From positions 60,001 to 92,000 of the forward strand of contig JAUWGH010000007.1 in assembly GCA_030606485.1 (NCBI GenBank): a stretch of DNA of 32,000 nucleotides. Reading direction: 5' to 3'. Both the position numbers and the translations under genes were made by a program. Within the stretch, counting starts at the first letter, position 1, and every line of letters starts with the position of its first letter. The stretch comes from Promethearchaeota archaeon (GTDB taxonomy: Archaea; Asgardarchaeota; Lokiarchaeia; Sigyniarchaeales; SOKP01). This document shows positions 4,031 to 30,341 of the stretch, one piece after another. The notes below the pieces were generated by a model. The model was not told the origin of the DNA and ran no database searches. It was given only the letters and a program-made list of their open reading frames with translations.

Positions 4031-4195
4031 TGCAGGGAGTGGGATTCGAACCCACGAAGAGCTATCTCACCGGATATCTCATCTGAAATTAGTGAGATCA
4101 ACGGAAATCATATTAATTAGATCTTGAGTCGAGCTAATGAGAAAGCTTTTTTCCCAAAAGAGTCCGGCACCGTTGACCAACTTGGTTATCCCTGC
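4031..4195 (-). tRNA. tRNA-Leu(CAA) with two introns (34 nt, probably 32/33; 47 nt at canonical 37/38)
   Basis: Acceptor GCAGGGA/TCCCTGC, anticodon stem CCGGA/TCCGG, long variable arm and T-arm GTGGG-TTCGAAT-CCCAC. Removing both inserts gives the loop CT-CAA-GA and an 84-nt tRNA. Intron 2 (4076..4122) has a perfect CTCA/TGAG BHB helix. Confidence 0.9.
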
Positions 4196-4329
4196 TTGAA
4201 GAATTTTTAAATAAAATAATATTTCAATAAATAAAAATCATTTTATAATCACTTTAACCAGACTTAGTCTTATAAATAATTAATAGTTTAACATAGTTTT
4301 AAAATCAAGATCAATTGAAAAAAGAAGAT

Positions 4330-4374
4330 ATCCTGTGGCGTAGACCTACAGGGGTTCAAATCCCTCCTCCTACA
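4330..4374 (+). pseudogene. Orphan 3' half of a tRNA-Leu (split-tRNA half or relic)
   Basis: A-TCCTG-TGGCGTAGACCTAC-AGGGG-TTCAAAT-CCCTC-CTCCTAC-A aligns with the 3' half of tRNA-Leu(GAG) at 28906..29018. I found no matching 5' half (GTAGGAG...CAGGA) nearby. Confidence 0.75.
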
Positions 4375-11150: not shown

Positions 11151-11625
11151 TAAAACCTAAAAACTATTTATTTTATTTTTAATAATATTAAAAACATAAA
11201 ATTTATAATTTCAATGATCTTTTAATACTATGTTGGTATTAAATTTGTAAGTTATTGGGAGCAAATTATTTCATCCTCGCCCCAAAACAGGATGCAATAT
11301 CCTAATAACTAGCACAAACATTATGGAAGAAAATCAAAAATTTTGGGGCATTTGATTTTTCGGGAAATGATGTTTAAGCTAGGCACAAGAAATTTAAAAT
11401 TTTTATAATTACATAATAATTAACTTGGAAACACAATCCAGAATTTCAATAATTTCAAATTTCATTACATTTAAGCTTTCCATGTATCTCTTGATCTTGT
11501 GCTCATAGGAATATATTTTTCCAAACAGGTAAACGTCTTAGGTATTTAAATATCTAAAAAATTAAAACAAACAAACTAATTCTAAATATAAGCACTCTAA
11601 ATCTTCCTCTGAGTAGTATCCAATA

Positions 11626-14792
<3,167 letters not shown>

Positions 14793-15107
14793 GGATATGA
14801 AAAGTGGATTATAGATTTAGGCTTAGAATATTTAGGATTGGAAATGGTTTAAAGACGTTTCTGTTGGGAGAATATATTCCTAAATTTTTTTTTTATTTCT
14901 ATTTTTTTAATTCAATTATTATCAATTTTCCGAGAAATTTAATTAAAATCCTAAAATAAATTTTCTAAATAATAAATTTCAGGAAAACGTCAAAAATTTT
15001 TAAGTAATATCATAAATACAAACCGACAAAATACTTTTACACTAATCTTTTGGGGACTTTTTAATAATATAATAATAAAAATAAGAAATAAATGAGGATT
15101 TTATTTT

Positions 15108-28905: not shown

Positions 28906-29018
28906 TGGTGAAGGAGGGGGGATTTGAACCCCCGAAGGCCTACGCCAATGGAACCTCAGTCCATCACCTCTAATCTCTTGATCTATATCAAGATTTGACC
29001 ATGCTTGGCGACTCCTTC
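28906..29018 (-). tRNA. tRNA-Leu(GAG) with 25-nt intron at ~21/22; CCA encoded
   Basis: Acceptor GAAGGAG/CTCCTTC; anticodon arm ATGGA-CT-GAG-GT-TCCAT. Intron 28970..28994 has helix GGTC/GATT, bulges AA|A and AG|A, and a 7-bp hairpin. Confidence 0.93.
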
Positions 29019-30244: not shown

Positions 30245-30341
30245 AGCCTCTGGAGGGAATTGAACCCTCGACCTTCTGATTACGACTTCTGTGCTTTAAT
30301 ACATATACATATCAGACGCTATACCACTAGGCTACAGAGGC
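30245..30341 (-). tRNA. tRNA-Thr(CGT) with 25-nt intron at 32/33
   Basis: Acceptor GCCTCTG/CAGAGGC with U73. Intron 30286..30310 has a perfect TCTG/CAGA helix and bulges AT|A and AG|T. The spliced loop is TT-CGT-AA. Confidence 0.92.

Follow-up and report, generated by a model that had tools for sequence, protein, structure and literature searches.

A tRNA-Leu(CAA) gene with two predicted introns in the anticodon loop and a five-nucleotide anticodon exon in a Promethearchaeia genome

The window analysed here (the whole stretch of DNA, 32,000 nt) carries a 165 nt sequence on the minus strand that is very likely the single functional tRNA-Leu(CAA) gene of the genome, with two bulge-helix-bulge (BHB) introns in the anticodon loop (at 32/33 and 37/38) that would be removed by the splicing endonuclease EndA and the RNA ligase RtcB in a proposed order of cutting and joining. 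The gene lies in a gap between genes, with a TATA-like A/T-rich stretch upstream and a T-run downstream. Its parts are as follows:

4031..4195, minus strand: the whole tRNA-Leu(CAA) gene, 165 nt, with a match to the Rfam tRNA model and 66 orthologues
4162..4195, minus strand: exon 1, tRNA positions 1-32 (5' strand of the acceptor stem, D arm, anticodon-stem strand CCGGA, C32)
4164..4167, minus strand: exon strand CCGG (positions 27-30) of the central helix of the intron-1 BHB, which doubles as the 5' strand of the anticodon stem
4128..4161, minus strand: intron 1 (34 nt), which separates positions 32 and 33, with an inner hairpin (4160..4134) and the 3' end CUCG-AC
4130..4133, minus strand: intron strand CUCG of the central helix of the intron-1 BHB, with C4131 opposite C4166 (mismatch)
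4123..4127, minus strand: micro-exon UCAAG, comprising U33, the anticodon C34 A35 A36, and G37
4076..4122, minus strand: intron 2, 47 nt, at the canonical position 37/38, with the UGAG strand at 4081..4078
4098..4104, minus strand: CCGUUGA in the loop of intron 2, perfectly complementary to 4176..4170 (UCAACGG, shared by D loop and D stem)
4031..4075, minus strand: exon 3 (A38, stem strand UCCGG, long variable arm, T arm, 3' strand of the acceptor stem, A73)

The Rfam tRNA model matched 4195..4031 from end to end with 42.2 bits (cut-off 29) when this region was searched alone, and the alignment placed an 85 nt insert in the anticodon loop. Rfam missed the gene in the whole window at the gathering threshold; a genome-wide Rfam scan missed it as well, and default ARAGORN did not call it in the whole window. 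Without both inserts an 84 nt sequence remained, which ARAGORN called as tRNA-Leu(CAA). Read from 5' to 3', the gene begins with the acceptor strand GCAGGGA, a D arm of the Leu type and CCGGA. The spliced anticodon loop, CUCAAGA, has 7 nt with U33, the anticodon CAA and a purine at position 37. We collected 66 orthologues from related genomes of the same class and aligned 46 of them. The variable region of 14 nt has a 3 bp stem that covaries, GAG/CUC being replaced by CUC/GAG in 14 of the 46 aligned orthologues, and the T arm was invariant in all 46. The consensus fold of this alignment recovered the acceptor stem, the anticodon stem, the variable arm and the T arm; pairing in the D arm appeared in another register than the standard D stem. 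The discriminator base of the predicted tRNA is A73, and the CCA end is not encoded. A long variable arm and discriminator A73 are identity marks of archaeal tRNA-Leu. The assignment to Leu(CAA) with two introns was borne out by the ARAGORN call on the spliced form and by the orthologues, seven of which lack intron 1 and match the predicted product.

Four other tRNA-Leu genes (UAA, UAG, GAG and CAG) are present in this genome, which has 3.75 Mb, a G+C content of 29% and an estimated completeness of 100%. A genome search for a second CAA gene revealed neither a further intact anticodon arm with CAA nor a paralogue. The tRNA-Leu(GAG) gene at 28909-28983 (minus strand) has an insert in the D arm and reached 20.9 bits, which is below the Rfam cut-off. 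Inserts in the D region are likewise present in the genes for Leu(UAG) and Leu(UAA) at other sites of the genome. A tRNA at 30245-30341 (minus strand) has a 31 nt insert in the anticodon loop (54.1 bits), and its call by ARAGORN as Thr(CGU) with an intron at position 32 looks unreliable in its placement. For a tRNA-Lys(CUU) gene (G000 C6:164858-164892) with an insert in the T loop the Rfam match was partial. Taken together, these cases suggest that default tools miss or mislabel a share of the genome's tRNA genes. The opposite (plus) strand carries, at 4321-4374 and some 130 nt away from the Leu(CAA) gene, the orphan 3' half of a tRNA of the Leu type, which comprises A38, a stem strand, a long variable arm, a T arm and an acceptor strand. 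A pattern search of the genome for the matching 5' half gave nothing convincing. The window also harbors an archaeal 23S rRNA gene (11617-14798, plus strand), which exceeds the Rfam model in length by about 200 nt. The Rfam scan detected no 16S gene in the window, and the rRNA genes may be unlinked in this genome.

Intron 2 has a perfect central helix CUCA/UGAG, the bulges AG|A and AU|A, and an inner helix UCU/AGA. It shows the strict BHB form with both outer helices, and its 4 bp helix uses positions 32-35. The helix, which had been predicted to be perfect for a 47 nt insert at 37/38, is indeed perfect here and was 97.3% paired across the orthologues, with A-to-G changes that preserve pairing. 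All but one of the 66 orthologues (65) were found to bear intron 2; in G012 the anticodon loop contains no intron. An additional hairpin, AUCUCA/UGAGAU (4098..4093 with 4081..4076), could, according to the original prediction, sequester the UGAG strand. It is present in this genome, but it is limited to the genus, and with 55.8% pairing across the orthologues it did not exceed the shifted controls.

The position of intron 1 was initially ambiguous between 29/30 and 34/35, with 32/33 as the favored junction. Exon 1 shows no variation as far as C32 in the 46 aligned orthologues, whose first base after C32 may be U, A or C. The second-to-last base of intron 1 is C in 38, U in 17 and A in 4 of the 59 orthologues that bear both introns, and U33 is invariant. 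Since only the junction 32/33 yields C32-U33 in every species, the ambiguity is settled: conservation breaks exactly at this point, the CCGG/CYRG helix covaries, and the orthologues lacking intron 1 have the predicted product. The BHB rule agrees with this placement, as positions 27-30 form a 4 bp helix with the four intron bases that precede the last two. The same alignment upheld UCAAG at 4123..4127 as a micro-exon, because the five bases are invariant in all 46 sequences and both flanks are variable. Mean column identity was 72% for intron 1, which has a length of 24-34 nt in the orthologues bearing it, and 96% for the exons.

In this genome, CCGG (4167..4164) faces CUCG (4133..4130) with the pairs C:G, C-C, G:U and G:C and with AC|U bulges on both sides, exactly the pairing with one C-C mismatch that the original prediction had described. 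The geometry of a BHB is thus present, with a 4 bp helix and two 3 nt bulges (A31-C32|N and A-N|U33 across the orthologues), and one pair is C-C here. The central helix was fully paired in 47 of the 59 orthologues, and 96.2% of the cells were paired among the 46 aligned sequences, where the second pair is C:G in 39, U:A in 5 and U:G in 1. Covariation was also seen at the first pair of the inner hairpin (U:A in 24, C:G in 13). The whole tested structure was 91.6% paired, compared to at most 44% with shifted partners. The internal C-C mismatch occurs in this genome alone among the 59; the intron strand is CUGG in three relatives of the same genus and CCGG, CCAG or CUAG in others. The predicted minimum-energy fold of the precursor of this genome has a shifted 3 bp register instead of the intron-1 helix. 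On the exon side, an outer helix (G26:C34 and U25:A35) can form here but is broken in relatives. Since a conserved outer helix was not seen on this side, the motif of intron 1 is a relaxed BHB.

The 34 nt insert is bounded by a direct repeat, GACTC, as noted in the original prediction. The repeat does not stem from a duplication: CCGG is self-complementary, and both bulges read AC|U by chance. Among 8 cases from lineages with a CUGG stem, 6 have the intron strand CCAG or CUAG, which complements exon 1 and mismatches the 3' strand of the stem. An intron strand that is the complement of exon 1 and not a copy of the stem argues for pairing and not for duplication.

Both introns are present in 59 of the 66 orthologues. 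Intron 1 is precisely missing from the other 7, which were counted as carrying only the 37/38 intron, and the sequence at this site, GGAC-UCAAGA, is identical to the predicted product of intron-1 splicing. A gene tree was built from the exons and intron 2, with a sister family lacking intron 1 as outgroup. The groups without intron 1 were nested with strong support among sisters that bear it (G014/G060 with G085, and G092 with G057/G104). Together with the outgroup, which lacks this intron, the nesting points to one gain and at least two exact losses of intron 1. One Leu(CAA) gene from a sister family has a 37/38 intron, and one from another family of the class has no intron in the anticodon loop. 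A search of the genome for copies of the two introns, which would indicate transposition, gave as best matches stretches of 13-15 nt at chance level. Ten orthologues (G056, G072, G073, G076, G083, G065, G084, G106, G090 and G022) have a third intron, which interrupts the T loop and is about 30-35 nt long; such three-intron genes (e.g., L105 and L098) are 187-197 nt long.

Chance and a misassembly at this locus were ruled out, as the two inserts are kept in 59 related genomes and the stretch occurs in other DNA runs. At least half of the words of the stretch were found in each of 15 DNA runs, and at least part of it in a total of 20 runs from 14 studies. In an independent DNA run of another study, a 143 nt contig matches 4053..4195 without a single difference, including the base of the C-C mismatch. 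The mismatch is therefore not an assembly error. The only contigs from RNA libraries that touch the locus are unspliced and derive from relatives; they cover exon 3 and the start of the relative's intron 2, and contain no joint.

The genome encodes two genes of the EndA family, with products of 199 aa (alpha) and 206 aa (beta-like), and the RNA ligase RtcB (579 bits). The alpha subunit gave a gap-free alignment with the catalytic subunit of Aeropyrum pernix EndA and retains Y140, H148 and the Lys. Its residues K57-P58-R59 are opposite K44-P45-R46 of the A. pernix protein, which belong to the Crenarchaea-specific loop (CSL, L1). The 206 aa protein has Pro in place of the catalytic His, as expected for a structural beta subunit. 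The nearest named relatives of the EndA gene are from MAGs of Promethearchaeota/Promethearchaeia (Asgard or Loki-type archaea). K44 of the A. pernix enzyme lies in the loop, which was shown to confer a broad substrate range, and one good bulge in a relaxed motif is enough for cleavage by endonucleases with the CSL loop (PMC3241643). An endonuclease of relaxed specificity had been postulated for this precursor, and the two subunits expected of it, an alpha with the CSL Lys-Pro-Arg and a beta-like protein without the catalytic His, are both encoded.

The gene, its exon boundaries, the helices that are conserved and covary, and the encoded enzymes are the observations from which we infer how cleavage and ligation would proceed and in which order. 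The alpha/beta EndA would cut each bulge after its second base, and RtcB would join the ends, resulting in the loop CUCAAGA. The BHB of intron 1 would use strand 27-30; the BHB of intron 2 would need either strand 27-30 or its look-alike in intron 1, the other strand of the intron-1 helix, for the adjoining stem. Because both BHBs compete for strand 27-30 or the look-alike, they cannot form together, and mutually exclusive BHBs imply a stepwise course of cutting, joining, refolding, cutting and joining. Such an order would keep UCAAG covalently bound to one neighbor throughout; four simultaneous cuts would free the pentamer.

Intron 1 is probably removed first. Its BHB is transcribed about 55 nt ahead of the 3' strand of the anticodon stem, the substitute stem formed by the look-alike is broken in several lineages and cannot form at all in some relatives, and 21 species have A or U as base 32', so that the intron-2 helix lacks a proper first pair as long as intron 1 is in place. 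Intron 2 would become a strict BHB after the joining of C32 to U33. The same gene and product would result if intron 2 was removed first or if the order was random, and we regard this as rather unlikely but worth serious consideration. In this genome, four of the five bases of the look-alike CUCGA pair with UCCGG, and constrained folding gave about equal energies for the conformer with the intron-2 BHB and the look-alike (-42.2 kcal/mol) and that with the intron-1 BHB (-41.9 kcal/mol). In 21 of the 59 orthologues the look-alike pairs perfectly with the 3' strand of the stem, and intron 2 could go first there; a fully paired alternative stem was counted in 38 of the 59. Against this order, lineages with CCAGA or CUAGA have one or two mismatches in the alternative stem and an intact intron-1 helix, an A or U at 32' abolishes or weakens the first pair of the intron-2 helix before removal of intron 1, and the intron-1 BHB is the first to be transcribed. 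The conformer with a closed anticodon stem reached -46.7 kcal/mol in the same analysis, so a BHB is not favored by thermodynamics alone. Multi-intron pre-tRNAs of Cyanidioschyzon merolae are spliced in a set order, as seen from intermediates in RT-PCR, and the 37/38 intron was removed last in the three tRNAs examined for order (PMC3728597). These precursors also contain several BHBs, but they are eukaryotic and their BHBs fold independently, while the motifs in tRNA-Leu(CAA) compete.

Intron 2 agrees with canonical 37/38 BHB introns in its strict form and differs from them by the D-arm complement in its loop. CCGUUGA is exact in 58 of the 66 orthologues, and its columns have 94% identity, compared to 64% in the remainder of intron 2. 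Its pairing with UCAACGG was kept in 98% without covariation and is present in the predicted minimum-energy fold. As the target UCAACGG is invariant, covariation cannot test this pairing. The UUGA of the motif could alternatively pair with U33-A36. CCGUUGA is absent from two Leu(CAA) relatives outside the family, including the one from a sister family with a 37/38 intron. When 19 other tRNA genes of the genome (18 of them intron-bearing) were searched for a complement to the D arm, the longest had 3-5 nt and did not exceed the level of shuffled sequences. To our knowledge, canonical 37/38 introns are not known to carry a conserved 7 nt complement to the D arm.

The intron of Haloferax volcanii tRNA-Trp houses a box C/D guide that pairs with its own exon and targets positions 34 and 39 (cited in PMC4090602). 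Intron 2 likewise contains a conserved element that pairs with an exon of its own tRNA. It differs from the H. volcanii guide in the lack of conserved C/D boxes, in its length of 47 nt, which is too short for a complete guide, and in its target, the D arm. We rejected a box C/D guide in intron 2, since inspection of the alignment by eye revealed no conserved boxes and none after CCGUUGA. UGAUGA or CUGA is found near the 3' end of intron 2 in some lineages only, and this genome has CAGAUGA.

Our best guess is that CCGUUGA holds the D arm open in the precursor. A wider proposal, which we make with considerable doubt, is a built-in folding switch: the competing motifs would never free the 5 nt exon, each ligation would trigger the next cut, and the pairing of CCGUUGA with the D arm would keep the precursor from adopting the cloverleaf until the last intron is removed. 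If this was true, the switch could, for example, stop charging with Leu of the precursor or of a mis-spliced CUU form. A search of the literature found no description of a switch or of a role in holding the D arm for archaeal tRNA introns.

That the gene is decaying or non-functional, with the 34 nt insert retained and the C-C mismatch marking lost splicing in this genome, is very improbable. In its favor, the mismatch is unique among the 59 orthologues, no spliced RNA was found in the runs compared, and wobble pairing would in principle allow tRNA-Leu(UAA) to read UUG. The search for the joined form covered the contigs of four runs, three of them RNA, and is uninformative either way. Against it, the exons are identical to those of relatives of the same genus, with 96% column conservation across the aligned orthologues, and the gene is the sole CAA isoacceptor in a genome of estimated full completeness. 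The entire change in the intron-1 BHB is one base, and the relaxed motifs with a single good bulge that CSL-loop endonucleases accept (PMC3241643) speak against a loss of splicing.

The reading of the locus as tRNA-Lys(CUU) with one canonical intron of 81 nt, which ARAGORN returned when introns were allowed and for which CUCU of exon 1 matches UGAG in three of four pairs adjoining a fully paired anticodon stem in the more stable closed-stem conformer of the constrained folding, can practically be dismissed, as it is contradicted by the orthologues: the putative CUU loop bases vary in relatives (CUUUUUU, CAUUUUG with A33, CCACUGC) and UCAAG does not, and orthologues without intron 1 have the loop CUCAAGA. 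In addition, the product would bear U37, a long variable arm of the Leu type and A73, and an ordinary tRNA-Lys(CUU) is located on the same contig beyond the window. Both tRNA-Lys(CUU) and tRNA-Lys(UUU) are present separately in the genome.

The gene with two introns and the micro-exon UCAAG has its closest parallels in the Thermoproteales. Sugahara reportedly described the multiple-intron tRNA genes of this order in 2007 and 2008. Ordered removal of nested crenarchaeal introns, with one motif forming only after another intron had been removed, is said to have been observed by Tocchini-Valentini and colleagues in 2009. Up to three introns occur in tRNA genes of the Thermoproteales (PMC4033280; PMC4090602). 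As in that order, the tRNA-Leu(CAA) gene combines a canonical with a non-canonical BHB intron, and its host has the type of enzyme that cuts the introns there, an alpha/beta EndA bearing the Crenarchaea-specific loop. It differs in its host lineage, the Promethearchaeia, in the position of both introns within a 7 nt loop and only 5 nt apart, and in the use of the palindromic 5' strand of the anticodon stem as central helix of intron 1.

The original prediction had held that multi-intron tRNAs are established mainly in Thermoproteota and a few other lineages, which overstated their rarity. An alpha/beta EndA with the L1 loop together with non-canonical and multiple tRNA introns has been reported for Asgard MAGs (Loki, Thor, Odin and Heimdall; PMC5829648), as have several introns in over half of the tRNA genes of Atabeyarchaeia and Freyarchaeia (PMC11291895). 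The passages of these two papers that we consulted do not describe the Leu(CAA) gene, the micro-exon, the pattern of presence and absence or the covariation. The tRNA-Leu(CAA) gene belongs to a known kind of multi-intron gene, and its particular points are the 5 nt anticodon exon and the shared-strand arrangement.

Since standard finders miss the gene or read it as Lys(CUU), this genome and dozens of related Promethearchaeia genomes would seem to be without tRNA-Leu(CAA). An anticodon exon of 5 nt tests how protein splicing avoids losing or skipping a tiny exon, and skipping of this micro-exon would make a leucine tRNA that reads a lysine codon. The 66 orthologues, with one gain and at least two exact losses at one intron position and a covariation that separates pairing from duplication, bear on the spread of tRNA introns in the closest archaeal kin of eukaryotes.
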